Notes: generated from the letters alone by a model not told the origin. DNA of 64,000 nucleotides from Escherichia coli (GCF_003018255.1 NZ_CP027440.1), one strand, 5' to 3'; positions 7,501 to 54,427 are shown, counted from the first letter of the stretch. Numbers and translations: made by a program.

Positions 7501-8097
7501 ATGCAACATTATGATCTGCTTATTACTGACGTTAATATGCCGAATATGGATGGTTTTGAGTTGACTCGCAAACTCCGAGAGCAAAATTCTTCCTTACCCA
7601 TCTGGGGGCTTACAGCCAACGCACAGGCTAACGAACGTGAAAAAGGGTTAAATTGCGGCATGAACTTATGTTTGTTCAAACCGTTGACTCTGGATGTACT
7701 GAAAACACATTTAAGTCAGTTACACCAGGTTGCGCATATTGCACCTCAGTATCGCCACCTTGATATCGAGGCCCTGAAGAATAATACGGCGAATGATCTA
7801 CAACTGATGCAGGAGATTCTCATGACTTTCCAGCATGAAACGCATAAAGATCTACCCGCTGCGTTTCATGCACTAGAAGCTGGCGATAACAGAACTTTCC
7901 ATCAGTGTATTCATCGCATCCACGGTGCGGCTAACATCCTGAATTTGCAAAAGTTGATTAATATTAGCCACCAGTTAGAAATAACACCTGTTTCAGATGA
8001 CAGTAAGCCTGAAATTCTTCAGTTGCTGAACTCTGTAAAAGAACACATTGCAGAGCTGGACCAGGAGATTACTGTTTTCTGTCAGCAAAATGACTAA
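4504..8097 (+). CDS. evgS: Hybrid sensor histidine kinase EvgS
   Basis: 1197-aa ORF; signal peptide, large periplasmic region, TM, H-box (MSHEIRTPISS), receiver domain (LIADDHPTN...DVNMPNMDGF) and C-terminal HPt (HRIHGAANIL). Confidence 0.95.
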   Translation: MKFLPYIFLLCCGLWSTISFADGDYIEYRGISSNNRVTLDPLRLSNKELRWLASKKNLVIAVHKSQTATLLHTDSQQRIRGINADYLNLLKRALNIKLTLREYADHQKAMDALEDGEVDIVLSHLVASPPLNDDIAATNPLIITFPALVTTLHDSMRPLTSSKPVNIARVANYPPDEVIHQSFPKATIISFTNLYQALASVSAGQNDYFIGSNIITSSMISRYFTHSLNVVKYYNSPRQYNFLLTRKDSIVLNEVLNRFVDALTNEVRYEVSQNWLDTGNLAFLNKPLELTEHEKQWIKQHPDLKVLENPYSPPYSMTDETGSVRGVMGDILNIITLQTGLNFSPITVSHNIHAGTQLNPGGWDILPAAIYSEDRENNVSFAEAFITTPYVFVMQKAPDSEQTLKKGMKVAIPYYYELHSQLKEMYPEVEWIKVDNASAAFHKVKEGELDALVATQLNSRYMIDHYYPNELYHFLIPGVQNASLSFAFPRGEPELKDIINKALNAIPPSEVLRLTEKWIKMPNVTIDTWDLYSEQFYIVTTLSVLLVGSSLLWGFYLLRSVRRRKVIQGDLENQISFRKALSDSLPNPTYVVNWQGNVISHNSAFEHYFTADYYKNAMLPLENSESPFKDVFSNTHEVTAETKENRTIYTQVFEIDNGIEKRCINHWHTLCNLPASEHAVYICGWQDITETRDLIHALEVERNKAINATVAKSQFLATMSHEIRTPISSIMGFLELLSGSGLSKEQRVEAISLAYATGQSLLGLIGEILDVDKIESGNYQLQPQWVDIPTLVQNTCHSFGAIAASKSIALSCSSTLPERYLVKIDPQAFKQVLSNLLSNALKFTTEGAVKITTSLGHIDDNHAVIKMTIMDSGSGLSQEEQQQLFKRYSQTSAGRQQTGSGLGLMICKELIKNMQGDLSLESHPGIGTIFTITIPVEITQQVAAVEAKAEQPITLPEKLSILIADDHPTNRLLLKRQLNLLGYDVDEATDGVQALHKVSMQHYDLLITDVNMPNMDGFELTRKLREQNSSLPIWGLTANAQANEREKGLNCGMNLCLFKPLTLDVLKTHLSQLHQVAHIAPQYRHLDIEALKNNTANDLQLMQEILMTFQHETHKDLPAAFHALEAGDNRTFHQCIHRIHGAANILNLQKLINISHQLEITPVSDDSKPEILQLLNSVKEHIAELDQEITVFCQQND

Positions 8098-8103
8098 ATA
8101 GCG

Positions 8104-8136
8104 GCTCCCACAATGTTCAAATGTGGGAGCTATTTA
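8104..8136. terminator. Putative bidirectional intrinsic terminator between evgS and yfdE
   Basis: Perfect 9-bp stem GCTCCCACA / TGTGGGAGC with 9-nt loop, T-rich tail on plus strand. Confidence 0.6.
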
Positions 8137-8152
8137 CCAGCACATCTTACAT

Positions 8153-9298
8153 TTATGATGAGAACTCCTGGCGAATTTGTTCCCCATGCTGGTCGAGCGT
8201 TGCCGCTCCCGGCATAACATGCGGGTCCGCGCAGCCGCTGATTTTTATCGGATTCCCCGGCATCATTATTCCCCCGGCTTCAATCAACATATTTCTCGCC
8301 TGAGTTTGTGGCAAATTAATGGCCTCAGCCACACTTAATAACGGCGCGACGGGTACACCAACTTCATGTATTCTGGCTAACCAAACTTCAGCTGCCTGCG
8401 TTTTTAACGTCCGCTCAATATATTGTTTAAGAATAGCCTGGTTTTGTACGCGTAAAATATTGCTGCTAAATCTGGGATCATTAACCAGTTCCGTAAGCTC
8501 CAGTGCCTGGCATAACGCAGAAAAAAGCTTGTCATTACCACAACAAATCGTAATCGGCTTATCCTGAGTATCGAAAACATCAAAAGGTGCCATGTAGGGA
8601 TGGCGATTTCCCAGGCGTTGTGGTGACTTCCCTGTCGCAATATATGCCATCAGACCATGCTCCAGAAAACTCAGCGTGGCATCAAACATCGCTATATCGA
8701 CATGCGCCCCTCTTTGGCTCTTTTCGCGGCCATAAAGTGCACTCACTATTCCGCTGAATAAATAGACACCGCCGCATAGATCCGCAAGAGAGGTACCCAC
8801 GCGCACTGGCGGAGCATCAGGGTATCCTGTTTCCATCATTATCCCGCTCATTGCCTGAATGATGGTATCGTAGGCAGGAGCATCTTTTAGCGGACCGGTA
8901 TGTCCGAAACCTGACGATGAAGCATATATAAGGCGCGGGTTGATTTCTTGTAACCTTTCCCATGAAAACCCGAGTTTTTCCATTGTACCTGGGCGAAAAT
9001 TCTCAGCTAATACATCCGCTTGTTTAAGCATATTTATAAATATACTTTTATCGTGATCATTCTTTAAATCAAGAACCACACTCTCTTTGCCATGATTAAT
9101 AAAACTGTAATAGAGTGACTGTCCATCCACATAGGGACCAAATGTGCGGGTATCATCACCATGACCCGGCGGCTCAACTTTAATTACCCTTGCGCCCATA
9201 TTACAAAGAAGTTGAGTTCCGAAAGGCCCATTAAGGACATGCGTCATATCGATAACTAATAAGCCTTCAAACGGCCCTTTGCATTCATTATTTGTCAT
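8153..9298 (-). CDS. yfdE: Family III CoA-transferase (acetyl-CoA:oxalate CoA-transferase)
   Basis: ORF paralogous to frc in this window (both carry CoA-transferase family III motifs); start chosen at MTNNECKGPFEG (381 aa) rather than the first in-frame ATG at 9337. Confidence 0.88.
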   Translation of the reverse strand: MTNNECKGPFEGLLVIDMTHVLNGPFGTQLLCNMGARVIKVEPPGHGDDTRTFGPYVDGQSLYYSFINHGKESVVLDLKNDHDKSIFINMLKQADVLAENFRPGTMEKLGFSWERLQEINPRLIYASSSGFGHTGPLKDAPAYDTIIQAMSGIMMETGYPDAPPVRVGTSLADLCGGVYLFSGIVSALYGREKSQRGAHVDIAMFDATLSFLEHGLMAYIATGKSPQRLGNRHPYMAPFDVFDTQDKPITICCGNDKLFSALCQALELTELVNDPRFSSNILRVQNQAILKQYIERTLKTQAAEVWLARIHEVGVPVAPLLSVAEAINLPQTQARNMLIEAGGIMMPGNPIKISGCADPHVMPGAATLDQHGEQIRQEFSS

Positions 9299-9371
9299 TT
9301 GCTTATGCCTTGAAAAAAGCCGAAGGTGAAAAGACACTTCGGCATTTATGTAAAATCAATAACATGATTAA

Positions 9372-10316
9372 TTATGAAACCAGTCGACTGACATAAATCC
9401 ACAAAGGAGCCGTGACGACAAAACCCAGTACGCTCACAGCCAATGACGCTGTACCAGTGCGGGTGTAGACATTAAACCGGCTGGCAATAATGATTCCGGA
9501 GAATGCCGGCGGTAAGGCGCCTGCCAGTACCATCATCTGCAAATGTTCGCTGTTCAAATGACATGCCATACCAACGAGAAGCAGCGCCAGTGGCATCAGA
9601 ATCAGCTTCAGGAAGGTGTTATAAGCAATTTCGGCACTGAACTCGAATTTATGTGCAGCCAGAGTCAACCCCGCAGCGAATACCGCTACCCCTGAGTTAG
9701 CCTTCGCAATCAGATTAAAGGTTGGGTCCCATGCTGCCGGAATTTTTACCCCAACCAACACCAGGATCGTTGCCAGAACAGGTGCCCATACTACTGGCTC
9801 CTTTGCCGCAGAAATTAATGCGCTCAGATTACTATTCTTCTTACCATCCGCTCCTGAGGAAGGATTCAGCAAATACAGACCAATAGGAATAGTAATTGCA
9901 TTAACAATAATAGAAATAATTGCTACCACTAAACCTGTTGATACGGAATCACCATAAATAGGATCGAGAACTGCAAATCCCAGGAATCCAATGGTAGGTG
10001 AACCTGCAATTAATGCACATACTGCTGCTTCTGCATGAGTACGTTTAAAAAATTTGTAGCAACCGAACCAGGAGAAAAAGAAACATCCGACAATAACCAC
10101 AAGTGATACAAGGGTCAGACGAGTGTCCGCAAAAATCATTTCCCTGTTTGCCCGGGTAATAGATACAAATAGAGCTGCAGGAAGAGCGTAGTTTAATACC
10201 AGTTTATTAAATGCCCGGGCTTGATCTTCTGAAAAAGTTTCTCGTCTGCCGCTAAAATAACCCAACAGCATGATTACGATAATAGGCAATAAATCGCCAA
10301 TAAAAAATGTTAGCAT
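9372..10316 (-). CDS. yfdV: AEC-family membrane transporter
   Basis: 314-aa polytopic membrane ORF between yfdE and oxc. Confidence 0.88.
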
Positions 10317-10385
10317 AATAGTATTTCCGATAAGGGTCCCCTCACCATCGCATAATGAGTTGGCAAGAGGAGACGATGTCAGTAT

Positions 10386-12080
10386 TTAATTACCAGCGAC
10401 TTGTTTTGGGTTAAGTTTGGTAATATGGCCACTTTCAGTTCCTGCTGCAGGGTCGATGACCACATTAATAATGGTCGGTTTGCGCGACTGAATACCGGTG
10501 GTTAAAGCATGACGAAGTTCATCTGTCGTAGTGACGTTATAGCCAACGCCACGAAACGCATCCATTAATTTGTCATACCTTGCATGGTGCAGCAGATCCG
10601 TTGGTGATGGTGCACCAGCGCCGCTGAGATCAACACCGTCTCCTCTGTAGATGCCGCCATTATTAAAAATAACGATCGTCACCGGCAGGTTATATCGACA
10701 AATCGTTTCAATTTCCATCCCACTGAAACCAAAAGCACTATCACCTTCAATGGCAACAACCGGAGAACCAGAGGTCACGCTAGCACCGATGGCATAGCCC
10801 ATACCGATGCCCATGACACCCCAGGTGCCACAATCCAGACGACGACGTGGTTTATACATATCAATAATATTTCGTGCATTATCCAGGGTATTTGCCCCTT
10901 CATTAACTAAATAAATATCCTGGTTCTCGCGCAATACGTCGCGCACAGCACTTAATGCATTAAAGTAATTTAATGGTTGAGTATCTGTGCTTAACTTTTC
11001 ATGCATTTTTTGTGCATTTTGCTGCTTGTGGATATTTAAAATATCGCGCCATACCAGTGGAGTCGTAAATGTGTTTTGTTTCAGTTCTGCCAGCATACCT
11101 TGCATACTGGATGCAATATCGCCAACGACTGGCACAGCAATGGGGCGGTTGCTGTCAATTTCCTGCGGTTCAATATCCAGTTGAATAAACTGTGTATCTG
11201 CCGCCCATCCTTTTTTACCGTGTGCCAGTAACCAATTCAGTCGTGCACCAACAAGCATGACAACGTCAGCATTTGCCAGGGCAAACGAACGCGCAGCCGC
11301 CGCAGAAAGTGGATGCGTATCTTCGAGGATCCCTTTCGCCATAGACATTGGCAGGAATGGAATCTGGGCACTTTCAATAAATTCACGAAGCTGTTCATCC
11401 GCTTGTGAATACGCCGCGCCTTTGCCAAGGATAACTAATGGTCGTTCAGCTTTTGCTAATAGCGAAATTGCGCTAGCGACTGACTTCGGGCATGGCAATA
11501 ATGCTGGCGACGGATTTTCAACTTTTACAATCGTGGTTAACGCTTCGTCTTTTTCCATCGTCGCGGCCAGGACATTTGCTGGCAAATCAAGATAAACTCC
11601 GCCAGGGCGACCCGATACTGAGACCCGGATAGCGCGTGCCAATGCAATGCCAAGATCCTGCGGCTGATTAACGCGGAATGCTGCTTTGGCATACGGTTTT
11701 GCCGCATTCATTTGGTCCAGCTCTTCATAATCACCTTGCTGTAGGTCGACGATCGCGCGGTCGCTGGAGCCGCTAATCATGATCATCGGAAAACCATTTA
11801 CCGTTGCGTTGGCCAATGCGGTCAAACCATTGAGGAATCCTGGCGCAGAAACTGTCAGGCAGATCCCCGGTTTTTGGGTAAGAAAACCGCTTGCCGCAGC
11901 GGCATAGCCTGCCGACTGCTCATGACGAAAACCAATATAACGAATGCCTTCCGCCTGGGCATGGCGCGCCATATCCGTCACAGGAATACCTACAACACCA
12001 TAAATAGTGTCAATACCATTCTGTTTTAATGCTTCAACGATGATATGCATACCATCTGTCATTTGAAGTTGATCTGACAT
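10386..12080 (-). CDS. oxc: Oxalyl-CoA decarboxylase (thiamine-diphosphate dependent)
   Basis: 564-aa ORF with ThDP-binding motif (GDSAFGFSGMEIETICRYNLP...NN). Confidence 0.94.
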   Translation of the reverse strand: MSDQLQMTDGMHIIVEALKQNGIDTIYGVVGIPVTDMARHAQAEGIRYIGFRHEQSAGYAAAASGFLTQKPGICLTVSAPGFLNGLTALANATVNGFPMIMISGSSDRAIVDLQQGDYEELDQMNAAKPYAKAAFRVNQPQDLGIALARAIRVSVSGRPGGVYLDLPANVLAATMEKDEALTTIVKVENPSPALLPCPKSVASAISLLAKAERPLVILGKGAAYSQADEQLREFIESAQIPFLPMSMAKGILEDTHPLSAAAARSFALANADVVMLVGARLNWLLAHGKKGWAADTQFIQLDIEPQEIDSNRPIAVPVVGDIASSMQGMLAELKQNTFTTPLVWRDILNIHKQQNAQKMHEKLSTDTQPLNYFNALSAVRDVLRENQDIYLVNEGANTLDNARNIIDMYKPRRRLDCGTWGVMGIGMGYAIGASVTSGSPVVAIEGDSAFGFSGMEIETICRYNLPVTIVIFNNGGIYRGDGVDLSGAGAPSPTDLLHHARYDKLMDAFRGVGYNVTTTDELRHALTTGIQSRKPTIINVVIDPAAGTESGHITKLNPKQVAGN

Positions 12081-12133
12081 GATTAATAACCTCGAAATTT
12101 TTATAAATTGGGAGCCAGAAGCCCCCGTTAATA

Positions 12134-13384
12134 TCAGATGGCGTGGTTTTGCTTCATTGCAGCAATTTCATCGTCGCTATAACCCAGCTCCTGCAATACA
12201 GCAGCGGTATGCTCACCTAATAGCGGCGCAGCTTTAATATCCGGCGTAAAGGCAGAGAATTTCATTGGACAACCAACGGTCAGATATTTTCCACGCAACG
12301 GTTGTTCCACTTCGACAACACTACCACTTTGGCGCAAAGAGGGATCAAGTGAAATTTCTTTCATACTTAAAACCGGTGCACAAGGAATATCAAACTGAGT
12401 CAAATAGGCCACCGCTTCATGTTTATCAATAGTGACAGTGTATTTTTCGATTTCAGCAAAAATATCGAAAATATGTGGCTGTCGGGCATGGGCTGTACTG
12501 TATGCCGGATCGGTAATCCATTCTGGTTTGCCGATGGCTTTACAGGTGTTTTCCCAGTTTTGCTCCTGAATAGTGAAATAAATATAGGCGTTAGGATCGG
12601 TTTCCCAGCCTTTACATTTCAGGATCCAGCCAGGCTGACCGCCACCACCCGCATTACCACCGCGGGGAACTGCATCACCAAATGTGCCATTCGGATACTG
12701 CGGGTATTCTTCCAGATACCCCAACTTATCGAGACGCTGCTGGTCGCGTAATTTCACGCGGCAAAGGTTCAACACGGCATCCTGCATTGACATGGTGACT
12801 CGTTGCCCACGCCCCGTTTTTTCGCGATGCAGCAAAGCAGCAAGTAAACCGATCAGCAAATGCATTCCGGTGTTGCTGTCACCCAACGCTGCAGCGCTTA
12901 CCAGCGGCGGACCGTCCCAAAAACCTGTAGTAGATGCCGCGCCACCCGCTGCCTGAGCAACGTTTTCATAGGCTTTTACATTCACATAAGGCGAACACTC
13001 ATCAAACCCTTTGATCGAACCAAAAATCAGACGTGGATTGATTTCTTGAATATGCTCCCAGGTGAAGCCCATATGATCAATGGCCCCTGGATGAAAGTTC
13101 TCGACTAAGATATCAGCTTCGCGGATCAGCTTTTCCATTACCTCTTTGCCTTCCGCTGTTTTGGTATTTAATTCAATAGAACGTTTGTTACTGTTAAGCA
13201 TGGTGAAGTAAAGCGCATCGATATCAGGAATATCTCGCAGCTGGTGGCGCGTTACGTCACCAACGCCGGGACGTTCAATTTTAATGACGTCAGCGCCAAA
13301 CCAGGCCAGCATCTGAGTACAAGATGGGCCAGATTGCACACCAGTGAAATCGAGAACTTTAATTCCTTGAAGTGGAGTTGACAT
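12134..13384 (-). CDS. frc: Formyl-CoA:oxalate CoA-transferase
   Basis: 416-aa ORF, family III CoA-transferase; N-terminal [33 protein letters not shown]. Confidence 0.94.
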
Positions 13385-13635
13385 AGCAATACCTATTAGT
13401 TAATTAAATATATGTTAATTTAGCGTTTATTTAAGGCATAATGCTCTCTATAAATAATCCGCAAAATATCGTCGTAGCTGCACTCGATATTTTTAAATTC
13501 CTGTATCAAGTGCTGATAATCATTTCATCGCCACTTCCAATTCCTTTCTGCATGGTAAGTAGTGAGGACGAAAAGAAGAATATGATAAATATTGGTTCGC
13601 GGTAATCAGAGAGGGCCGCGACATTTGTGATGTTA

Positions 13636-13653
13636 TTCTTACAACTGTAAGAA
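13636..13653. promoter_or_regulatory. Perfect EvgA-consensus palindrome upstream of frc
   Basis: TTCTTACA-AC-TGTAAGAA read directly from sequence; exact match to TTCPyTACA-N2-TGTAPuGAA; about 250 bp upstream of frc start. Confidence 0.65.
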
Positions 13654-13896
13654 GCGCCGGTGATGTACAAGTAAGGGTATGATTACGCTTTTTAAAGCGT
13701 ACCATAAAACATAACATAATAAATGATTTATGATGACACGGGATTATTGCGGTTTACTTTGAAGAATATAAAATGCGAGTTTATAGCACCGCGAGCGCCA
13801 AATAATTTTATGGCCACAACCTGTCGTATTGTGGCCATAAAAAATTGTCGGCTGGAGGGAGTAAAATCCTTTACCTCAATATATTGCCTGTCAGCT

Positions 13897-21257: not shown

Positions 21258-22115
21258 ATGAAAGCACCAGGCTTGCCCGCCGATCAACAATTTTTCGCCG
21301 ATCTGTTCAGCGGCCTGGTGCTTAACCCGCAACTACTGGGGCGCGTCTGGTTTGCCAGCCAGCCTGCCTCGTTACCGGTGGGCAGTTTATGTATTGATTT
21401 TCCCCGTCTGGATATCGTGCTGCGCGGCGAATACGGCAATCTGCTGGAAGCAAAGCAGCAACGTATGGTTGAAGGAGAAATGCTGTTTATTCCGGCGCGC
21501 GCGGCTAATTTACCGATCAACAACAAACCGGTGATGCTGTTAAGCCTGGTGTTCGCACCGACCTGGCTTGGGTTATCGTTTTACGATAGCCGCACCACGT
21601 CGTTGTTGCATCCGGTTCGCCAGATCCAACTTCCCAGCCTGCAACGCGGCGAAGGTGAAGCAATGCTTACTGCCCTCACCCATCTTAGCCGTTCGCCGCT
21701 GGAGCAGAATATCATTCAGCCGCTGGTGTTAAGTTTGCTGCATCTTTGCCGTAACGTGGTGAATATGCCGCCGGGCAATTCGCAGCCGCGCGGCGATTTT
21801 CTCTATCACAGCATTTGTAACTGGGTTCAGGATAATTATGCCCAGCCGCTCACCCGTGAGAGCGTGGCGCAGTTTTTTAATATCACGCCAAATCATCTGT
21901 CAAAACTGTTTGCTCAGCATGGAACAATGCGTTTTATCGAGTATGTTCGCTGGGTACGAATGGCAAAAGCGAGGATGATTTTGCAAAAATATCATCTGTC
22001 GATTCATGAAGTGGCGCAGCGTTGCGGGTTTCCGGATAGCGACTATTTTTGTCGCGTTTTCCGGCGTCAGTTTGGTCTGACGCCGGGAGAGTACAGCGCC
22101 CGTTTTCAGGGCTAA
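21258..22115 (+). CDS. ypdC: AraC-family transcriptional regulator
   Basis: 285-aa ORF with C-terminal AraC-type HTH (HEVAQRCGFPDSDYFCRVFRRQFGLTPGEY). Confidence 0.9.
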   Translation: MKAPGLPADQQFFADLFSGLVLNPQLLGRVWFASQPASLPVGSLCIDFPRLDIVLRGEYGNLLEAKQQRMVEGEMLFIPARAANLPINNKPVMLLSLVFAPTWLGLSFYDSRTTSLLHPVRQIQLPSLQRGEGEAMLTALTHLSRSPLEQNIIQPLVLSLLHLCRNVVNMPPGNSQPRGDFLYHSICNWVQDNYAQPLTRESVAQFFNITPNHLSKLFAQHGTMRFIEYVRWVRMAKARMILQKYHLSIHEVAQRCGFPDSDYFCRVFRRQFGLTPGEYSARFQG

Positions 22116-22117
22116 CG

Positions 22118-24613
22118 TCAGAAGGTTAATTCTGTTTCCAGCAGCGTCAGGATGCTTTGTGCATCTTGCGCGGCAAACAACGACTGGCGGAAGTTTTTAT
22201 TCACCAGTTTACGCGCCAGCTGCGAGAAGACTTTCACATGATTCATCCCTTCGTTAGCGCCCAGTGTCAGCATGATCACCAGTTCGACTTCGCCCATTTC
22301 TGACTGCCAGTCAACCGGTTTCACCAGTCGGGCAATGCTGATACTGGAATGACGGATCCACTGAGATTTGGTGTGCGGGATCGCTACGCCAAAACCAACG
22401 CCGGTGGTAACAATCTCTTCCCGCTGCCAGACATCCTCTTCCAGCTCGAACGGATGTTCAGTGCGCCCGTTAACGCCGAGGTTACCGCACAGGAACTGGA
22501 TCGCCTGCTCTTTATTGCTAAAAGCCTGATCAACAAAGATATTCTCCAGCGCCAGCAGAGGGCGAACGTCTTCTTCCGGCGTAAACGCGGTGAGTAACGC
22601 TTCAATCTCCTGCGCGCTGCGGCATTCACATGCCTGACGCGCCAGTTCCCGACACGCCTCGCTATCCAGTTGACGAAGCTGGCTTTTCACCGCCGGAATG
22701 CGCGGGCTACTCATACTCAGCTCGTCCAGGCCCAGCCCAAGCAGTAGCGGCAGATAACGGCTTTCACCGCCCAGTTCACCGCAAATACCTACCCATTTAC
22801 CCCGCTGATGCGCAGTGGTAACAATCTGCTGCAACATGCGCAGGAACGATGGCGTAATCGGGTTATACAGCGGCGATACGCGCGGGTTATTACGATCGAC
22901 CGCATACAGATACTGGGTCATATCGTTGGAGCCGATACTGAAGAAATCGACCTCATCGCAGAAGTGATCGATGATGTAGCACACCGACGGCACTTCCACC
23001 ATGATACCCAGCGTAATCGTCTCTGCATGACGCAGGCCATCGCGCTTAAGCTCAACGATCGCTTTTTGGATCTCGCCCTTCACCCATAAGATCTGATCGA
23101 GGCTGTGAACCATTGGGATCATCAACTGGGCGTTGCCGAAACTGGCGGCGCGCAAAATGGCCCGCAGTTGAGTGCGGAACAGGCCAGCAAATTCCGGGTA
23201 AATTCGTACCGCACGATAGCCGAGGAACGGGTTCTCTTCCTGGGGAATGTTGAGGTAAGGAATGCTTTTATCGCCGCCGATGTCCATTGTGCGGAAGATA
23301 ATCGGCTTGTCGCCCGCGGCCAGTAGCACCTGCTGGTAGGCTTCAAATTGCTCCTGCTCGTCCGGCGCACTGTCGCGATCCATATAGAGCATTTCGGTAC
23401 GAAACAGCCCGACGCCTTCCGCGCCGTTGGCAAACGCGCCAGGCGCTTCCAGCGCGGTGCCAATATTCGCCGCGATATCAATGCGCTTGTTATCACGGGA
23501 ATAGGCCAGCTGCGCGGCGGCCTGCGCCTGCTGCTGCTGACGTTTATCCGCCAGCATCTGCGCAACCTGATAATAACCGCTCACCGCGTCATTCGGGTTA
23601 ATCGCCAACACGCCGCACTGGGCGTCAAGCACCGCCGGTTGCCCGGCATAGCGCGCAATGGCATCCAGCGGCAGGCCGCTCAGTACCGGGATCGCCGAGG
23701 CGCGGGCCAGAATCAGGGTATGCGAGGTGCGCCCGGTTTTCTCCAGAATCATGCCCGCAAGATTTTTTAAATTGAGGCTCAAAAACTGGCTAGGGGTTAA
23801 ATCCTCTGCCACCAGAATGGTCGGTTTTTCCAGCACCAGATTGTTGCGCGGTTTTAGTTCCGGCCAGGTGATATGCAGTAACTGTTCGCTGATATCGCGA
23901 ATGTCGCTAACCCGCTCGCGCAGATAATCACTGGCAGAAGCAGAAAGTTTGGCGCAAACCTGCTCCATATTGCTGATGATCGCCGCCCCCAGCCCCTGAT
24001 GCTGTTCTGCCATCAGGTGACGGATATTGCCTGCAAATTCATCATCCTGAATCAGCGACAAATGGGCGCTGAGGATAGTTTTGCTTTCGCCGTCACGCTC
24101 ACGCAATTGCTGGTTCAGTTGCTCGGCAAGCGTTGCCAGGCTGTGCTCCAGCCGGGTGGAATCTTGCGCACTGGCGGGGATCGCCCGGTAACTGTCGAGG
24201 CTGTCGCTCTGTAACAGGGTCAGCGTACCCACGCCGACGCCGCTTGCCAGCACATTGCCGTACAGTAAATCAGGATTCAGACGGCTTAATGAACGCGGCA
24301 GCGGATGCGCCGTCAGTTCTGCCTGCGTTGGCTGGACGCTGTCGCTGTCGATAAAGCGCACCTGGATGTACTCTTCCAGCACGCGCCGCGCCTGCTCTTC
24401 ATCGCTGCCGCTAATGTTCAGGCTGCAACCGTCATTAAATAGGGTGCCGGTGCCAATCAGCGCCAGCGAGCTTTTGGCATCTGCCTTTGCGTTCTGGCGA
24501 TGGTTAATAAAAGTGATTTCGCTTTGCCACTGGCTGCACTGTTCTTTAAGTTCCCACGCCGGACGAGCATGCAGACCGTTTGGCAAAGGACAGAGAAATT
24601 GAATCGTTAACAT
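22118..24613 (-). CDS. fryA: PTS multiphosphoryl transfer protein (HPr-like, Enzyme I-like and IIA domains fused)
   Basis: 831-aa ORF; HPr-like N-terminus (GLHARPA), central EI-like PEP-utilising domain paralogous to ptsI in this window, C-terminal IIA-like domain. Confidence 0.92.
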   Translation of the reverse strand: MLTIQFLCPLPNGLHARPAWELKEQCSQWQSEITFINHRQNAKADAKSSLALIGTGTLFNDGCSLNISGSDEEQARRVLEEYIQVRFIDSDSVQPTQAELTAHPLPRSLSRLNPDLLYGNVLASGVGVGTLTLLQSDSLDSYRAIPASAQDSTRLEHSLATLAEQLNQQLRERDGESKTILSAHLSLIQDDEFAGNIRHLMAEQHQGLGAAIISNMEQVCAKLSASASDYLRERVSDIRDISEQLLHITWPELKPRNNLVLEKPTILVAEDLTPSQFLSLNLKNLAGMILEKTGRTSHTLILARASAIPVLSGLPLDAIARYAGQPAVLDAQCGVLAINPNDAVSGYYQVAQMLADKRQQQQAQAAAQLAYSRDNKRIDIAANIGTALEAPGAFANGAEGVGLFRTEMLYMDRDSAPDEQEQFEAYQQVLLAAGDKPIIFRTMDIGGDKSIPYLNIPQEENPFLGYRAVRIYPEFAGLFRTQLRAILRAASFGNAQLMIPMVHSLDQILWVKGEIQKAIVELKRDGLRHAETITLGIMVEVPSVCYIIDHFCDEVDFFSIGSNDMTQYLYAVDRNNPRVSPLYNPITPSFLRMLQQIVTTAHQRGKWVGICGELGGESRYLPLLLGLGLDELSMSSPRIPAVKSQLRQLDSEACRELARQACECRSAQEIEALLTAFTPEEDVRPLLALENIFVDQAFSNKEQAIQFLCGNLGVNGRTEHPFELEEDVWQREEIVTTGVGFGVAIPHTKSQWIRHSSISIARLVKPVDWQSEMGEVELVIMLTLGANEGMNHVKVFSQLARKLVNKNFRQSLFAAQDAQSILTLLETELTF

Positions 24614-24637
24614 AACCGCTCCGGGTTAATCAGGAGA

Positions 24638-25675
24638 TCATCTGAAATCCGTCAGTTGAACAACCGTCTCACGCGTAAGACGTTGAATAAGGGCAGATAA
24701 AAGCTGCTGCATCTGCAAAATGTCACGGCAATCGGCAATCGATGCGGCGCAATGTCCGTGGCGGGTGGCAGGCCCCATCACCACTGTGGGTACGCCAGTG
24801 CCGGTTAAGTGCACCGCCCCACCGTCCGTGCCACCGTTGCTGAACATATCCGCCTGCAACGGCACGCCAATTTCTGCCGCCACGGTTTCAATCCACGCGG
24901 TAAGTTTTGGCGGCGCAATCAGCGATTTATCGCTTAACACCAGCATCGGCCCGTTACCAATCTGACGATGGTTAGCCGCGCCATAATCAAAGTTTTTCGC
25001 CCAGCAGGCGGTATCAAGCACAATGGCGACGTCCGGCGACACCGCGCGGGTGGCAGTTTGCCCGCCGCGTAATCCCACCTCTTCGCTGGAACTTGCCACC
25101 AGCCACACCTCCGCAGGCAGTTCGGCGTCGTGCAGCTCACGTAGTAACGTCACCAGCAGATAGCAACCGAGGCGATCATCAAAGGCTTTCCCCATCACCC
25201 GCTGGTGAGGGAGAACCTGAAAAGTTGTATCAAAGGTGACGCGATCGCCTGGACGAATTCCCGCCTGCATCACTTCGTCATACGAGCGCGCACCAATGTC
25301 CACGCGTATGGTGCTGACGTCATTCCCCTGCCGGTCGCCGTCAAGCAGGCCTGGAATTTTGCACTCTTCACGGGTAGTGATACGCACCGACTGAAGCTGG
25401 CGGGCAGCCATGCGTACATTGCCAACCGGCAACACATCGATCGCCCCTTCGCGGGAGATGCTGCGCACCATAAATCCCACTTCGTCCATATGCGCACAGA
25501 TCATCACCTTCGGACCTGTCGACTCATTGAGTCGGATCAGCACCGATCCCAGCCCATCAAATCGCACTTCTTTTTGCAGGCGATCCGCTTCTTCCAGCAG
25601 GATCTGCCGTACTTCCTGTTCCGAGGAGGCGATCGCATCTGCCTCGCTCAACGCTTTTAATAACGATAAATCCAT
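24638..25675 (-). CDS. ypdE: M42-family aminopeptidase
   Basis: 345-aa ORF embedded between fryA and ypdF. Confidence 0.88.
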
Positions 25676-26760
25676 TATGCCTCTCCCGTGAGCAACACTG
25701 TTTTCGGCATGGCGTAGAGCACTTCTACGCCTTGCGGGGTGACCAGCACAACATCTTCGATGCGCACGCCCCCTTGCCCTGGCAAATAAATCCCCGGCTC
25801 CACGGTCAGTAACATGCCTGGCTGTAGCGTCGTGGTGTCCCGCGGTGAAAAACGCGGATCCTCATGGACTTCAATACCGATAGCATGACCGGTGTTATGA
25901 CCGAAATAGTCGCCATAACCGGCTTCTGTAATCACCCGGCGCGCGGCGTCGTCAACCTGCTGGCAGCGTACGCCGGGGCGAATCGCGGAGATTGCTGCGA
26001 GCTGTGCCTGCAGGACAATCTGATAGACGTTAAACAGCGGGTGGGATTCGGCACTTACCCCTTCGCCATTCACCAGCAAGGTGCGCGTCATATCAGAGCA
26101 GTAGCCCTGATACAGCGCACCGAAATCGAGAGTGACAAACTCGCCCGCTGCAACAATCTTGTCGCTGGCTTTGCCGTGCGGCAGCGCCCCACGCCAGCCG
26201 CTGGCGACAATGGTATCGAAAGAGGCTTTTTCTGCGCCCTGCTGGCGCATAAACCACTCCAGTTCAGCGGCTATCTCGCGCTCGCTCATCCCCGCCTGAA
26301 TAAAGCGGCGAATATGCTCTGCACCGCGATCGGCAATCCCACAGGCGAGACGGATTTTCTCCACCTCCTCTGGCGTTTTGAGTTGCCGCAGCACATCCGG
26401 CGTGGCGCTAACCAGTTTCGCATTGAGTTCAGACTGCCAGCGGTGCGCGGTTTCCCAACTCACCTGCTGGCCTTCAAAACCGAGCGTTTGCAACTGCTCA
26501 TCGGCAAAGATTTGCCTGACGATGGTGGCAAGCGTGTGCATCGCGTCGAGCAAATGCAGCTGGTAACCTTGCGTGCGGGCTTCTACATCCGCGTAATAGC
26601 GCGAGTCCACCAGAATGTGCGCACTTTCACGGCAAATCACCACATAGCCTGATCCGGTGGAGATCCCCAGATGCGGCTGTTTGTTCTGCCGTGAGGAGAG
26701 AAGCACCGCATCCAGTTGTTGCGCCTTAAGCCAGTCGCGCAGCGAAGCGAGTAATGTCAT
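25675..26760 (-). CDS. ypdF: M24-family Xaa-Pro aminopeptidase
   Basis: 361-aa ORF with M24 metal-ligand context ([13 protein letters not shown]); stop overlaps ypdE start. Confidence 0.88.
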
Positions 26761-26774
26761 CAGGATTGTCCTTC

Positions 26775-28022
26775 TTACAGGCTATCGATTAACAATTTGC
26801 CTTTACGGAACATCATCAGACGCAGGAACACCACCATCAGCGCAGTTATGACTGCCCCCAGCGCGATCCCCGCCATGTAGACGCCGAGGTTAGTGACCAG
26901 CGGCCATGCCCAGATAGCGGACTCCGGGAACCATTGCACTGCGCCCAGCCAGACAGCGGCGGTTGAGCCGACAATCGCGCCGACCATATAGGACGGAATG
27001 GCGGTGATGGGGCTTTCCAGCGCAAACGGAATCGCACCCTCACTGATCCCCATAAACGCCAGGAACATGGCGGTTTTACCCTGCGGATAAAGCTGAGCAC
27101 TGAACAGACGTTTGCCGGTTAAACGGCGGTCGATAATGGTCGCCAGACCCAGACCAATCGGCGGAATAACAATAGCGATGGAACGCGCGGTAACCGGTAA
27201 TACGTGGTCAGTGGTAAAGCTGAAGGCAACGAAACCAGCTGCTTTGTTGATCGGGCCACCAAGGTCGATTGCTGTCGCCGCGGCGATCCCCATCGCGTAC
27301 ATTAGCGCACCCTTCTCACCTGCGGCAGTCAGCACGGTACGGATACCGCCGTTGATCCAGCCACCAAAGGGGGTGATGACGTAGTACATCGCCAGCATGA
27401 CAAAAATGGCGGAAAGAATCGGTAGCAAAAATGTGGTTTTGAACGCTAACAGGAAATCCGGTAACTGGATTTTCTGGTTCATCCACTTCACAAGGTAACC
27501 AGCAACGATAGAAATAATCAGGGCACCAATGAAGGTGGACGGCACCGGCGAAGAGGTCGCCCATTGCATCGTGCTGGGATCGAAGTTCAGCAGTTGCGTC
27601 GGCTGGGTAGACATCAACCCACCGATAAAACCAGCCGGGAACGCCAGTTTGCCACCGATAGAGTTCGCCACAAATGCAGCAAACATCGGAATGGCAAAAC
27701 CAAACAACACGCCGCCGAAGGACTGCGACAACCAGGCAAATTTCAGTAAGGAGAGGTCGAAACCGGAGAATTTCCCGCTATTAAGAGCATCCATGATGCC
27801 GATATCAGCAGGAATTTTAAGCCAGCTATAAGCAATCAGCTGGCTGAAAGCGAGGATCACACCGCCCATAATTAAGGTCGGCACCATGCGTGAAATCCCT
27901 GACATCACATGCTGCGGGAGTTCACCCCAGAAGCTGGTTTTAGAGGCCTGCGGATTCTTAACTGCCGCTGCCGCACCGGATGCGCCAGGCACAACGGTTG
28001 CACTGCGTTTTTTAATGGCCAT
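26775..28022 (-). CDS. fryC: PTS fructose-like EIIC permease
   Basis: 415-aa polytopic membrane ORF. Confidence 0.9.
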
Positions 28023-28043
28023 AACAATTATCCCTGTCGAATA

Positions 28044-28370
28044 TTACTGTTGTTCAGAGGCAATCATCTCTTCGATTTCTTTGATGATGCCCGCAGCGTT
28101 TTTAATTGCGTCCTGCAAAGTGATTTCATAAACGTCGCGTGATTCGAAACGTTCGTTATCTTCCGGGGTAACCGCCACGGAGTGGATGATGATGGTCGCT
28201 TCGGCGATATCCTGCGCGGTCAGGCGATTCTGGATGCCGTCCGCGCCCTGAGTTTCAATTTTCACTTCATAGCCTGCTTCCACCGCCGCTTCTTCCAGCG
28301 CCTGGGCTGCCATAAAGGTGTGAGTCAGACCCATCGGGCAGGCACATAAAGCAATCAGTTTCTTACTCAT
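28044..28370 (-). CDS. fryB: PTS fructose-like EIIB component
   Basis: Start chosen at MSKKLIALCACPMGL (108 aa), with active-site Cys context, rather than upstream ATG at 28421. Confidence 0.88.
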   Translation of the reverse strand: MSKKLIALCACPMGLTHTFMAAQALEEAAVEAGYEVKIETQGADGIQNRLTAQDIAEATIIIHSVAVTPEDNERFESRDVYEITLQDAIKNAAGIIKEIEEMIASEQQ

Positions 28371-28536
28371 CGTTAATTCCTCGTTCAGTGATAGTTGACG
28401 AGTGAAATTATGAACGTGCAAAACAAATCGCCGTTACCAGACAAATAATGCATTTACTGGAGAATTAATCCCGCTGTACGGAAGTGTGACGCAGGTCGGC
28501 CTTGTGAGGGGACACAAAGGAAAATTGAATTAACTG

Positions 28537-28574
28537 TATGATTTAAAAGATTATCGGGAGAGTTACCTCCCGAT
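28537..28574 (-). terminator. Putative intrinsic terminator after glk
   Basis: 9-bp stem TATCGGGAG / CTCCCGATA; U-tract on the minus-strand transcript. Confidence 0.65.
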
Positions 28575-28588
28575 ATAACAGGAAGGAT

Positions 28589-52699: not shown

Positions 52700-54427
52700 A
52701 TGATTTCAGGCATTTTAGCATCCCCGGGTATCGCTTTCGGTAAAGCTCTGCTTCTGAAAGAAGACGAAATTGTCATTGACCGGAAAAAAATTTCTGCCGA
52801 CCAGGTTGATCAGGAAGTTGAACGTTTTCTGAGCGGTCGTGCCAAGGCATCAGCCCAGCTGGAAACGATCAAAACGAAAGCTGGTGAAACGTTCGGTGAA
52901 GAAAAAGAAGCCATCTTTGAAGGGCATATTATGCTGCTCGAAGATGAGGAGCTGGAGCAGGAAATCATAGCCCTGATTAAAGATAAGCACATGACAGCTG
53001 ACGCAGCTGCTCATGAAGTTATCGAAGGTCAGGCTTCTGCCCTGGAAGAGCTGGATGATGAATACCTGAAAGAACGTGCGGCTGACGTACGTGATATCGG
53101 TAAGCGCCTTCTGCGCAACATCCTGGGCCTGAAGATTATCGACCTGAGCGCCATTCAGGATGAAGTCATTCTGGTTGCCGCTGATCTGACGCCGTCCGAA
53201 ACCGCACAGCTGAACCTGAAGAAGGTGCTGGGTTTCATCACCGACGCGGGTGGCCGTACTTCCCACACCTCTATCATGGCGCGTTCTCTGGAACTGCCTG
53301 CTATCGTGGGTACCGGTAGCGTCACCTCTCAGGTGAAAAATGACGACTATCTGATTCTGGATGCCGTAAATAATCAGGTTTACGTCAATCCAACCAACGA
53401 AGTTATTGATAAAATGCGCGCTGTTCAGGAGCAAGTGGCTTCTGAAAAAGCAGAGCTTGCTAAACTGAAAGATCTGCCAGCTATTACGCTGGACGGTCAC
53501 CAGGTAGAAGTGTGCGCTAACATTGGTACGGTTCGTGACGTTGAAGGTGCAGAGCGTAACGGCGCTGAAGGCGTTGGTCTGTATCGTACTGAGTTCCTGT
53601 TCATGGACCGCGACGCGCTGCCCACTGAAGAAGAACAGTTTGCTGCTTACAAAGCAGTGGCTGAAGCGTGTGGCTCGCAGGCGGTTATCGTTCGTACCAT
53701 GGACATCGGCGGCGACAAAGAGCTGCCATACATGAACTTCCCGAAAGAAGAGAACCCGTTCCTCGGCTGGCGCGCTATCCGTATCGCGATGGACCGTAAA
53801 GAGATCCTGCGCGATCAGCTCCGCGCTATCCTGCGTGCCTCGGCTTTCGGTAAATTGCGCATTATGTTCCCGATGATCATCTCTGTTGAAGAAGTACGTG
53901 CACTGCGCAAAGAGATCGAAATCTACAAACAGGAACTGCGCGACGAAGGTAAAGCGTTTGACGAGTCAATTGAAATCGGCGTAATGGTGGAAACACCGGC
54001 TGCCGCAACAATTGCACGTCATTTAGCCAAAGAAGTTGATTTCTTTAGTATCGGCACCAATGATTTAACGCAGTACACTCTGGCAGTTGACCGTGGTAAT
54101 GATATGATTTCACACCTTTACCAGCCAATGTCACCGTCCGTGCTGAACTTGATCAAGCAAGTTATTGATGCTTCTCATGCTGAAGGCAAATGGACTGGCA
54201 TGTGTGGTGAGCTTGCAGGCGATGAACGTGCTACACTTCTGTTGCTGGGGATGGGTCTGGACGAATTCTCTATGAGCGCCATTTCTATCCCGCGCATTAA
54301 GAAGATTATCCGTAACACGAACTTCGAAGATGCGAAGGTGTTAGCAGAGCAGGCTCTTGCTCAACCGACAACGGACGAGTTAATGACGCTGGTTAACAAG
54401 TTCATTGAAGAAAAAACAATCTGCTAA
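52700..54427 (+). CDS. ptsI: PTS Enzyme I (PEP-protein phosphotransferase)
   Basis: 575-aa ORF; phospho-His region ([15 protein letters not shown]) and PEP-binding domain. Confidence 0.97.

Follow-up and report, generated by a model that had tools for sequence, protein, structure and literature searches.

The fry PTS operon of Escherichia coli and its relatives in other phyla: candidate transporters of sugar conjugates that travel with peptidases

Introduction

Several described PTS systems share parts of the fry operon of Escherichia coli. The mannosylglycerate PTS MngA, which is paired with the GH38 hydrolase MngB, belongs to the Fru family, as does fry; mannosylglycerate systems consist of a fused IIABC and a glycosidase, whereas in fry the IIB and IIC are two distinct proteins, the operon itself encodes an EI-HPr-IIA protein, and peptidases stand where the glycosidase would be. 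The PTS operons frvABXR and sgcXBCQAER each hold an M42 paralog (FrvX and SgcX, respectively) and, like fry, have an undefined substrate, but their permeases are of other families (FrvB is a IIBC and SgcC is of the galactitol type) and, unlike fry, they have neither an M24 peptidase nor an Enzyme I of their own. The malXY operon, which pairs a PTS IIBC gene with the gene for the beta C-S lyase MalY, shares the combination of PTS permease and MalY/PatB-family lyase with the FryC-family clusters described below, but its permease is of the Glc family and it has no peptidases, while E. coli fry has no lyase. Enteric catabolism of sugar-amino-acid conjugates proceeds through frl, gfr, and fra (fructoselysine, glucoselysine, and fructose-asparagine, respectively), whose pathways need deglycases, kinases, or amidases; no gene for such an enzyme turned up among the conserved neighbors of FryC clusters.

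An orthologous layout occurs in Clostridioides difficile 630, where CD2484-CD2491 comprises pmi, an M20 dipeptidase, a PRD regulator, IIA, IIB, a FryC-type IIC (54% identical), a YpdF-type M24 peptidase, and a PatB-like lyase. Compared with fry, this cluster depends on the general EI and HPr, has M20 in place of M42, and contains two further enzymes, the lyase and the isomerase. The PTS genes CD2486-88 and the adjacent Xaa-Pro peptidase gene CD2485 are co-regulated (PMC3510511), and the literature describes the cluster as expressed, including during infection, and as regulated by glucose/CcpA. The literature searched reported no substrate for the fry operon and contained no transport, induction, or enzyme assay of fry with any conjugate. 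New here are the comparison of FryC-family clusters, the conserved and apparently araBAD-like fryB promoter, and the observation that ypdC is linked to fry.

Results and Discussion

The fry locus and its gene products

The locus examined here corresponds to the E. coli fryBC-ypdFE-fryA operon, which has been described and annotated before. It lies on the minus strand at positions 22118-28370 of the window (the whole 64,000-nucleotide stretch of E. coli DNA that was analyzed), as five intact ORFs that agree with the RefSeq annotation. The original prediction had named the set fryA, ypdE, ypdF, fryC, and fryB, and the intact ORFs, the RefSeq match, and the domain matches all uphold this choice. 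The predicted adjacency was also correct, but the listed order was the reverse of that of transcription: as all five genes are on the minus strand, transcription runs fryB>fryC>ypdF>ypdE>fryA, with fryB first and fryA last. The end formerly given, 28421, corresponds to a TTG at which the longest ORF starts; the annotated fryB ATG is at 28370, with a GAGGAA ribosome-binding site upstream. In E. coli K-12 the same locus (b2387-b2383 plus ypdC, b2382) has the same gene order, lengths, and neighbors (glk and ypdABC); nucleotide identity is 96-97.5% gene by gene, and the 1-12 amino-acid changes per protein are allelic only.

The first gene of the operon, fryB (28044..28370, minus strand), encodes a PTS IIB of the Fru family (PF02302 match; TIGR00829 score 89.4 against a cut-off of 76.85 for Fru-type IIB) with the active-site cysteine motif CPMG in the N-terminal LCACPMG. 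Next, fryC (26775..28022, minus) encodes the IIC, which as the membrane permease determines what is transported; it passes PF02378, scores 157.3, just below the cut-off of 157.55 for fructose-specific IIC (TIGR01427), and comes near the cut-off of none of the equivalog models. The product of ypdF (25675..26760, minus) is an M24 Xaa-Pro-type aminopeptidase with Creatinase_N and pita-bread domains (PF01321 and PF00557), scoring 809 against a cut-off of 393 for equivalog NF007310 and having a solved structure (PDB 5CNX); all of its M24 metal-ligand motifs were seen (LDFGA, CSDMTR, TGHAIG, VEPG, and RIED, supplying Asp, Asp, His, Glu, and Glu), and in vitro it reportedly cleaves before proline. 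The M42 aminopeptidase gene ypdE (24638..25675, minus; PF05343, 286 bits) overlaps the ypdF stop with its start codon by 1 nt (ATAATG); that this junction overlaps had been predicted. YpdE scores 678 against a cut-off of 412 for equivalog NF007421, has a solved structure (PDB 1YLO), and shows all motifs of the two-metal site of M42 (His, Asp, Glu-Glu, Asp, and His), including RHGHC.

The last gene, fryA (22118..24613, minus), encodes an HPr-EI-IIA(Fru) multiphosphoryl transfer protein, with Pfam and NCBIfam domains spanning residues 6-84 (HPr), 119-650 (EI), and 687-826 (IIA). The motifs GLHARPA, GRTSH, and AIPH were seen, and the cysteine motif ICGELGG appeared in the alignment with PtsI. The IIA domain scores 110 bits with PF00359 and 140.9 against a cut-off of 103.5 with TIGR00848, AIPH holding the active-site histidine, and the EI domain reaches 506 against a cut-off of 341.7 for the full-length Enzyme I family (TIGR01417), with its phospho-histidine in GRTSH and its catalytic cysteine in ICGELGG. 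The general Enzyme I gene ptsI, an ORF outside the operon on the plus strand (52700..54427), is a paralog of this domain: BLASTP gave 39% identity over 575 aa with FryA residues 117-683 (E = 1e-132), at a distance of 28-30 kb, in keeping with the paralog that had been placed about 30 kb away.

Of the 5426 complete E. coli genomes searched, 5415 contain the fry region, but just 4 have the present allele at ≥99% identity. Comparison with K-12 gave dN/dS ratios of 0.02-0.13 across the fry genes (0.021 for fryC), the mark of purifying selection. Some rare fry alleles contain gene fusions or a fryC that has lost 36 aa in frame; the deletion allele is missing from nearly all of the 5426 genomes.

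A conserved promoter and a candidate regulator

The gaps fryB/fryC, fryC/ypdF, ypdF/ypdE, and ypdE/fryA measure 21, 14, -1, and 24 bp, and a scan inside the fry genes returned two terminator-like hairpins, fewer than in shuffled sequence, and a single promoter-like match, also within the shuffled level; all three were weak. One strand, short gaps, and internal signals at background are the features of a single operon; the gene order is kept in 32 Enterobacterales loci, and the fry genes have been listed as one operon (PMC2731931). Upstream, the transcription unit is bounded by a terminator-like hairpin directly 3' of glk (28552..28575, minus), whose 10-bp stem leads into a T-rich tail.

The proposed fryB promoter has the -10 hexamer CATAAT (28407..28412, minus), almost invariant in 16 genera, which went unreported by a generic sigma-70 scan because there is no -35 match. 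Upstream of it lies a direct repeat, ATTAATTCTCCAGTAA / ATTATTTGTCTGGTAA, in a 20-nt register (28434..28469, minus), which is a candidate site for an AraC-type activator (YpdC). Counted from a guessed transcription start, the two repeats occupy -69 to -54 and -49 to -34; they are the only two perfect matches of the repeat in the window, and they align and are conserved in 16 Enterobacterales genera whichever gene is upstream. Farther up, a conserved block, CGAC..GCGTCACACTTC (28481..28500, minus; centered near -92.5), might be a weak CRP-like site, with 3 mismatches to TGTGAN6TCACA. Judged by its sequence, the fryB promoter has a conserved layout of the AraC class II (araBAD-like) kind, with two putative half-sites by -35 and an AraC-family gene alongside.

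That gene is ypdC (21258..22115, plus; PF12833 and PF00165), which is convergent with fryA, their stop codons 2 bp apart. It adjoins fry in 29 of the 32 Enterobacterales loci having FryA, compared with only 11 for ypdA/ypdB. In these loci ypdC travels with fry and not with ypdAB, and YpdC is probably the dedicated fry regulator.

The E. coli operon might alternatively be a silent evolutionary remnant, or a purely regulatory phosphorelay, with no present transport function. It has been called cryptic and has no inducing condition on record, the promoter has no good -35 element, the rare deletion and fusion alleles exist, and YpdC gave no ChIP-exo peaks under the laboratory conditions tested (PMC8464067). 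Set against this are five intact genes under purifying selection, an operon present in nearly every complete genome, the near-absence of the fryC deletion allele, and promoter elements kept across 16 genera. In addition, a UTI89 ypdE deletion mutant was outcompeted in the mouse bladder (competitive index 0.30) (PMC8767336), and an in-frame fryA deletion is reported to alter fitness in LB. We consider loss of transport function very unlikely.

Peptidases accompany FryC-type permeases across phyla

The FryC family was defined as IIC proteins at least 50% identical, and 78 loci in which the DNA continues past the IIC gene were informative. In 60 of these 78, a YpdF-type M24 gene directly follows the FryC-type IIC gene; the M24 loci come from Enterobacterales, Clostridia, Negativicutes, Erysipelotrichia, and one Mycoplasmatales-like contig. 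In the 60 M24 loci the partner peptidase is an M42 enzyme (YpdE type) after the M24 or an M20 enzyme alongside. M24 and M42 occur together in 34 Enterobacterales loci, of which 32 reach FryA, and in 15 Firmicutes loci, of which 14 also have a lyase and the remaining one stops at the contig end; nine loci have M24 and lyase (eight of them with M20 as well), and two Rahnella loci have M20 and M24. The peptidases of the Firmicutes clusters score near the equivalog cut-offs (352 against 393 for the YpdF model and 393.5 against 412 for the YpdE model). In 17 FryC-family loci a GH38 alpha-mannosidase stands instead of the peptidases.

Outside Enterobacterales, the peptidase genes of the M24 loci are nearly always followed by one for a MalY/PatB-family PLP beta-lyase, which reaches the PatB-family cut-off and has E. 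coli MalY as its best PDB match, MalY and PatB being its closest solved relatives. The M20 partner is a member of the Sapep/PepV dipeptidases, a family with a Cys-Gly-conjugate dipeptidase among its members, and a mannose-6-phosphate isomerase gene is attached in five loci, in three distinct arrangements. The PRD/Mga-type regulator of the Firmicutes clusters resembles FrvR. One Enterobacterales MAG has ypdC-fryB-fryC-ypdF-ypdE-fryA and then a PatB-like gene, and the Mycoplasmatales-like relative combines RidA, an alanine-dehydrogenase-family gene, RpiR, IIABC, M24, M20, and a PatB-like gene. In the clusters an SIS domain was found only within an RpiR regulator. Taken together, fry looks like the enterobacterial version of an old cross-phylum module in which a FryC-type permease is joined by an M24 peptidase of the YpdF type, a second peptidase (M42 or M20) and, outside Enterobacterales, usually a lyase.

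The M24 gene after IIC in 60 of 78 loci and the tight gene spacing support the view that YpdE and YpdF are functional partners of the fry transporter and not passengers. Peptidases in a PTS operon had been called atypical, which needs qualification: all three M42 genes of K-12 known to us lie in PTS operons. Under a simpler explanation, fry would be a PTS for a plain sugar (fructose or mannose), with YpdE and YpdF as housekeeping aminopeptidases that merely share the transcript and have unlinked substrates. Both enzymes are said, in a 2005 J Bacteriol report, to cleave ordinary peptides in vitro; the NCBI annotation is fructose PTS, and the E. coli operon has no catabolic enzyme specific to a conjugate. 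This explanation nevertheless seems unlikely in view of the M24 gene's position in several phyla, the alternation of M42 and M20 partners, the 1-nt ypdF/ypdE overlap, the location of the K-12 M42 genes, and a FryC score that falls just below the fructose IIC cut-off and fits no equivalog.

What fry may transport

That transporter and peptidases are kept together across phyla suggests that the substrate is a sugar joined to an amino acid or peptide and not free fructose. The original prediction had made this proposal with fructosamines, glycopeptides, and Amadori compounds in mind; its general part gains from the 60 M24 loci and from the co-regulation in C. difficile, but the fructosamine part finds no support. 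Such compounds (fructosamine, Amadori or Heyns compounds, or glycated peptides) do join a sugar to an amino acid, and frl, gfr, and fra illustrate that bacteria use them. However, the fructosamine pathways known to us depend on either a kinase or an SIS/FrlB-type deglycase, and neither a deglycase nor a fructosamine kinase was present among the conserved neighbors of the 42 non-enterobacterial loci clustered or in the enterobacterial operon. Their absence from the conserved neighboring genes of all 60 clusters counts against the Amadori suggestion, and the enzymes that are associated are instead a MalY/PatB-type beta-lyase, mannose-6-phosphate isomerase, or GH38, with an outgroup resembling mannosylglycerate systems. 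Moreover, an N-terminus with an Amadori modification is a secondary amine, on which aminopeptidases act poorly. A substrate of this class is highly improbable.

The sugar handled by fry is more likely mannose than fructose, given the isomerase in five loci, GH38 in 17, and the mannosylglycerate-like outgroup. The nearest FryC outgroup proteins (40-44% identical) adjoin GH38 in four of four cases and also glycerate kinase in two of the four; GH38 likewise accompanies the 17 FryC-family members noted above, as MngB does MngA. The FryC proteins were compared in a neighbor-joining tree without support values. This preference for mannose draws on 5 of the 25 non-enterobacterial loci of the peptidase class and on the neighbors of related transporters.

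A sulfur- or amide-linked conjugate might also be the substrate, such as a sugar-bearing cysteine S-conjugate, an S-glycosyl peptide, or an aminoacyl-aminosugar, e.g., bacillithiol (Cys-GlcN-malate); the peptidases would strip amino acids and the PatB-type enzyme would cut the C-S bond or degrade cysteine. The membership of the lyase in the PatB C-S lyase family and that of the M20 partner in a family with a Cys-Gly-conjugate dipeptidase agree with this, and bacillithiol is, like mannosylglycerate, an alpha-glycoside of a hydroxy-acid. The isomerase linkage and the GH38-class relatives, on the other hand, favor mannose over glucosamine, natural S-mannosyl compounds are not widely known, and the lyase was lost in Enterobacterales while the remainder was retained. 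A conjugate of this kind is distinctly unlikely.

We favor the reading in which fry is one activator-dependent unit, probably under YpdC control, whose self-contained Fru-family PTS and two peptidases import a sugar-amino-acid or sugar-peptide conjugate, and put its probability at roughly 0.55. The genes fryB-fryC-ypdF-ypdE-fryA would be transcribed together from the activator-dependent promoter, with FryA contributing the Enzyme I, HPr, and IIA parts of the system, FryB acting as IIB, FryC as permease, and the M24 enzyme YpdF, of Xaa-Pro type, and the broad-specificity M42 enzyme YpdE as co-transcribed cytoplasmic metallo-aminopeptidases. A small sugar-amino acid or sugar-short peptide conjugate would enter through FryC, FryB would phosphorylate the sugar (more probably mannose than fructose), YpdE and YpdF would trim the peptide part inside the cell, and, in organisms having the lyase, this enzyme would detach the last amino acid. 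Since the E. coli operon has no lyase, glycosidase, or isomerase gene, the last step of the proposed pathway lacks an assigned enzyme in this species. Further points against this reading are that Fru-family PTS permeases are known to act on monosaccharides and small glycosides, not peptides, that the PatB family is known to cut C-S, not C-O, bonds, and that YpdC gave no ChIP-exo peaks.

A more specific and quite speculative version, which we regard as unlikely, is that FryC-family systems are an undescribed route for the use of O-mannosyl (or other glycosyl) serine/threonine glycopeptides via beta-elimination. The PTS would import the glycopeptide and phosphorylate its mannose, M24 (Xaa-Pro) with M42 or M20 would trim it to a phospho-mannosyl amino acid, and the MalY/PatB-type PLP lyase would free mannose-6-phosphate by beta-elimination, not hydrolysis, giving pyruvate or 2-oxobutyrate plus ammonia; mannose-6-phosphate isomerase would then lead into glycolysis.

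Conclusions

In E. coli, fry, frv, and sgc count among the operons that still lack an assigned function, and no explanation for peptidases in sugar-transport operons has, to our knowledge, been given. Our comparison points to mannosyl-amino acids and mannosyl-peptides as candidate substrates, to YpdC as a likely regulator with the direct repeat ahead of fryB as its putative site, and to better-equipped model clusters, e.g., C. difficile CD2484-CD2491. If the lyase step were true, it would be a new bacterial way to detach sugars from glycoproteins, of relevance to growth in the gut and in the urinary tract, where the uropathogenic ypdE mutant is less fit. The O-mannosyl reading, if true, would also offer a natural function for MalY within the E. 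coli malXY system, as well as for the M42 genes of frv and sgc.

Identity and integrity of the fry operon

The window is E. coli chromosome, and its stretch at 22118-28421 matched four RefSeq genomes at 100% identity and essentially all others at 95 to 99%; of 5426 complete E. coli genomes, 5415 contained at least 80% of this stretch. RefSeq and K-12 annotation places fryB, fryC, ypdF, ypdE and fryA (labeled ptsP in the closest RefSeq genome) on the minus strand, flanked upstream by glk and, converging from the opposite side, by ypdC, ypdB and ypdA. Annotation, open reading frames (ORFs) and domain matches confirmed a fry PTS operon with two embedded aminopeptidase genes. ORFs agreed with annotation for fryA (22118-24613, minus strand), ypdE (24638-25675, minus), ypdF (25675-26760, minus) and fryC (26775-28022, minus). 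The annotated ATG of fryB (minus) is at 28370, preceded by a GAGGAA ribosome-binding site; the original prediction ended at 28421, where the longest fryB ORF has its TTG start, and not at this ATG. Likewise, the order fryA to fryB is right by coordinate, but transcription is reversed, with fryB first and fryA last. Domain assignments were correct throughout (FryA, HPr-EI-IIA; YpdE, M42; YpdF, Creatinase_N plus M24; FryC, PTS_EIIC; FryB, PTS_IIB), YpdE and YpdF passed their NCBIfam equivalog models by wide margins, and the proposed paralogy of the FryA EI part with ptsI (52700-54427) held at 39% identity. The fry locus is a known, annotated object.

Adjacent operon genes are separated by 21, 14 and 24 bp, except for ypdF and ypdE, which share one base (ATAATG). 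Inside the fry genes, a hairpin scan detected no more than two terminator-like hairpins, both weak, and the whole region had fewer of them than shuffled sequence; a clear terminator-like hairpin lies 3′ of glk (28575-28552), and fry therefore has its own control region. All phosphorylation-site and metal-ligand motifs were present in the encoded proteins, of which YpdE (1YLO) and YpdF (5CNX) have solved structures. Values of dN/dS relative to K-12 (fryA, 0.038; ypdE, 0.031; ypdF, 0.135; fryC, 0.021; fryB, 0.023) indicate ordinary purifying selection; the genes are maintained rather than decaying. Decay of fryC was suggested by a rare E. coli allele (protein variant P0072, 82 contigs) with a 36-amino-acid in-frame deletion (codons 120-155; window 27558-27665) that takes out several residues invariant across the FryC family; this idea was rejected, since 5417 of 5426 complete genomes retain the segment in question. 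FryC is also found, rarely, fused to YpdF or to YpdE (P0081, P0082 and P0085). Among the 5426 complete E. coli genomes, just 4 carry the present allele of 22118-28421 at ≥99% identity. Divergence from K-12 was higher in the fry/ypd genes (dS of 0.10 to 0.17) than in neighboring glk and yfeO (dS of 0.06), suggesting that this segment has recombined or is divergent.

Predicted promoter and regulator

The 220 bp upstream of fryB were aligned across 16 Enterobacterales genera and were conserved with either glk or rna as the upstream gene. Conserved elements on the minus strand comprised a direct repeat, ATTAATTCTCCAGTAA / ATTATTTGTCTGGTAA (28469-28434), these being the only two perfect matches in the window; a nearly invariant putative -10 hexamer, CATAAT (28412-28407); the fryB ribosome-binding site; and a block at 28500-28481 containing a weak CRP-like half-site. 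A CRP site with three mismatches was considered too weak, and this element was treated as a conserved block only. If transcription is assumed to start 7 nt past this hexamer, the repeats occupy -69 to -34, as in araBAD-type promoters, and the region at 28407-28500 looks, from its sequence, like an activator-dependent promoter of this type. No description of such a promoter for fryB was found in the literature searched. A generic sigma-70 scan gave no more matches than shuffled sequence and missed the conserved fryB promoter.

The neighboring ypdC is a candidate for the corresponding activator. It converges with fryA (window 21258-22118), the two stop codons being 2 bp apart without an intervening terminator hairpin. 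Of 32 Enterobacterales loci with FryA, 29 have ypdC next to fry but only 11 have ypdA and ypdB there. In E. coli, ypdC is grouped with the pyruvate-sensing ypdAB (pyrSR) pair as ypdABC. Because of the difference in linkage, gene neighborhood assigns ypdC to fry and not to ypdAB, and YpdC is a likely, predicted activator of fry. Published ChIP-exo of YpdC was without peaks (PMC8464067).

Conservation of the permease-peptidase association

A homologue search of 1.84 billion representative proteins showed close FryC relatives to be few, with only 54 representatives at E ≤ 1e-30. Outside the enterobacterial cluster, the closest full-length protein was a fused IIABC (54% identical) on a Mycoplasmatales-like contig, ordered RidA, an alanine-dehydrogenase-family gene, RpiR, IIABC, then M24, M20 and a PatB-like gene. 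The next four relatives (40 to 44% identity) adjoin a GH38 alpha-mannosidase, two of them a glycerate kinase as well, the gene set expected for mannosylglycerate use.

A locus scan using one genome per species and proteins ≥50% identical to FryC gave 80 loci, annotated by phmmer and tblastn; two reach a contig edge right after the IIC gene, and the other 78 fall into classes. The 34 Enterobacterales loci carry YpdF-type M24 and YpdE-type M42 genes, with FryA reached in 32. Fifteen Firmicutes loci (class 1: Enterocloster, Hungatella, Caproiciproducens, Ruminococcaceae, Lachnospiraceae, Breznakia and Thermoanaerobacterales) also have M24 and M42, together with a PRD/Mga-type regulator, IIA and IIB, and 14 of them a PatB-like lyase (one being cut by a contig end). 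Nine more (class 2: C. difficile, Pelosinus, Lucifera, Caloramator, Geosporobacter and others) have M24 and the lyase, with an M20 dipeptidase upstream in eight. Two Rahnella loci carry M20, IIB, IIC and M24, a single Streptobacillus locus has only the lyase, and 17 loci have a GH38 alpha-mannosidase in place of the peptidases. Overall, an M24 gene follows the permease gene in 60 of the 78 loci. The Firmicutes peptidases scored slightly below the equivalog cut-offs (352 versus 393 for YpdF; 393.5 versus 412 for YpdE), and the cluster lyase attained the PatB-family cut-off, its best solved match being E. coli MalY. One Enterobacterales MAG with ypdC, fryB, fryC, ypdF, ypdE, fryA and then a PatB-like gene links the enterobacterial and lyase-bearing versions. 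In a neighbor-joining tree without support values, GH38-class and peptidase-class permeases interleaved in one family, apart from a mannosylglycerate-like outgroup.

Simple ORF calling had ypdF apparently missing from several loci (L015, L020, L027, L029, L047 and others) because long antisense ORFs misled the caller; tblastn recovered full-length intact genes. The dcuC and rna genes upstream of fryB in Enterobacter-type genomes are unrelated housekeeping genes outside the module. At the thresholds applied, AlaC, an aminotransferase near ypdABC, showed no relationship to the cluster lyase. A contig labeled Chryseobacterium sp. 18061 (L037) carries an Enterobacter-type fry operon (FryC 74% identical, dcuC and rna upstream), and probably reflects contamination or a mislabeled assembly. 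In Streptobacillus notomytis (L079, 7368-12171) the PatB-like lyase gene comes immediately after the FryC-type PTS, without any peptidase gene, and is succeeded by a Mur-ligase-family gene (458 amino acids), possibly a sign of a connection with the recycling of cell-wall peptides. The cluster lyase (L054:13349-14536 and equivalents) is most similar to E. coli MalY, whose gene adjoins that of the PTS permease MalX; PTS systems may be paired with MalY/PatB-type lyases more generally.

When all neighboring genes of the non-enterobacterial loci were clustered, no further widely conserved neighbor emerged, with the exception of a type I mannose-6-phosphate isomerase, whose gene accompanies five loci in three different layouts. 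Two Oscillospirales-type genomes and Geosporobacter have it 3′ of the lyase gene; in C. difficile and a related Clostridium it is oriented divergently to the M20 gene. The C. difficile counterpart of fry, CD2484-CD2491, comprises pmi, an M20 dipeptidase, a PRD regulator, IIA, IIB, IIC, M24 and a PatB-like lyase. Gene order in our C. difficile locus (L084, about 4675-13667) agrees with published names (PMC3510511), giving pmi as CD2491, the fructose-like IIC, IIB and IIA as CD2486-88, and the putative Xaa-Pro aminopeptidase as CD2485. Glucose induces both this PTS and CD2485 through CcpA (PMC3510511), which is independent evidence of transporter and peptidase co-expression in a distant species. 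The PTS proteins have been detected, and CD2487 is reported to be up during mouse infection.

Substrate and mechanism

The literature searched named no substrate for Fry and held no earlier description of a link between PTS, M24 and lyase. The fry genes are given as one operon, weakly induced with the Cpx response (PMC2731931); an in-frame fryA deletion survives better in LB (PMC5364489), and a UTI89 ypdE deletion loses competition in the mouse bladder (competitive index, 0.30; PMC8767336). Three K-12 M42 genes, to our knowledge the only ones, sit within PTS operons: fry, frvA-frvB-frvX-frvR and sgcX-sgcB-sgcC-sgcQ-sgcA-sgcE-sgcR. The sgc operon (M42 gene sgcX; K-12 copy, L004) is reportedly induced on nitrogen-containing, slow-growth carbon sources (PMC13343008), a pattern that would fit amino-acid-bearing substrates for PTS operons containing M42 genes.

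The module consists of a complete phosphorelay and permease with two intact metallopeptidases, packed like an operon and with deep permease-M24 conservation, and we place the probability that PTS and peptidases are functionally coupled at roughly three in four. The original prediction of a conjugated substrate gained support from the comparative evidence, and we lean modestly toward a transported compound that combines a sugar with an amino acid or peptide, on which the peptidases would act in the cytoplasm after uptake. Nothing in this evidence pointed to separate transcripts for PTS and peptidase genes, or to uptake of plain fructose alongside unrelated peptidases. The fructosamine or Amadori version of the original prediction was unsupported, because neither deglycase nor fructosamine kinase was among the conserved neighbors of any cluster examined. 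Mannose is tentatively indicated as the sugar by the relatives of the GH38 class, by the resemblance of the outgroup to mannosylglycerate systems and by the linked isomerase gene. Bacillithiol-like aminoacyl-aminosugars and sugar-cysteine thiazolidines ranked lower because of the mannose-6-phosphate isomerase and GH38 associations. Where present, the lyase might take off the last amino acid by elimination; the RidA and alanine-dehydrogenase-family genes of the Mycoplasmatales-like cluster would fit an elimination yielding aminoacrylate, pyruvate and ammonia. Weaknesses of this scheme are that the PatB family is known for C-S and not C-O bonds and that the E. coli fry operon is without lyase or isomerase; a full O-mannosyl-peptide pathway with a lyase step is considered improbable. 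Comparison of fry with its relatives yields concrete, testable predictions on the function of this operon.
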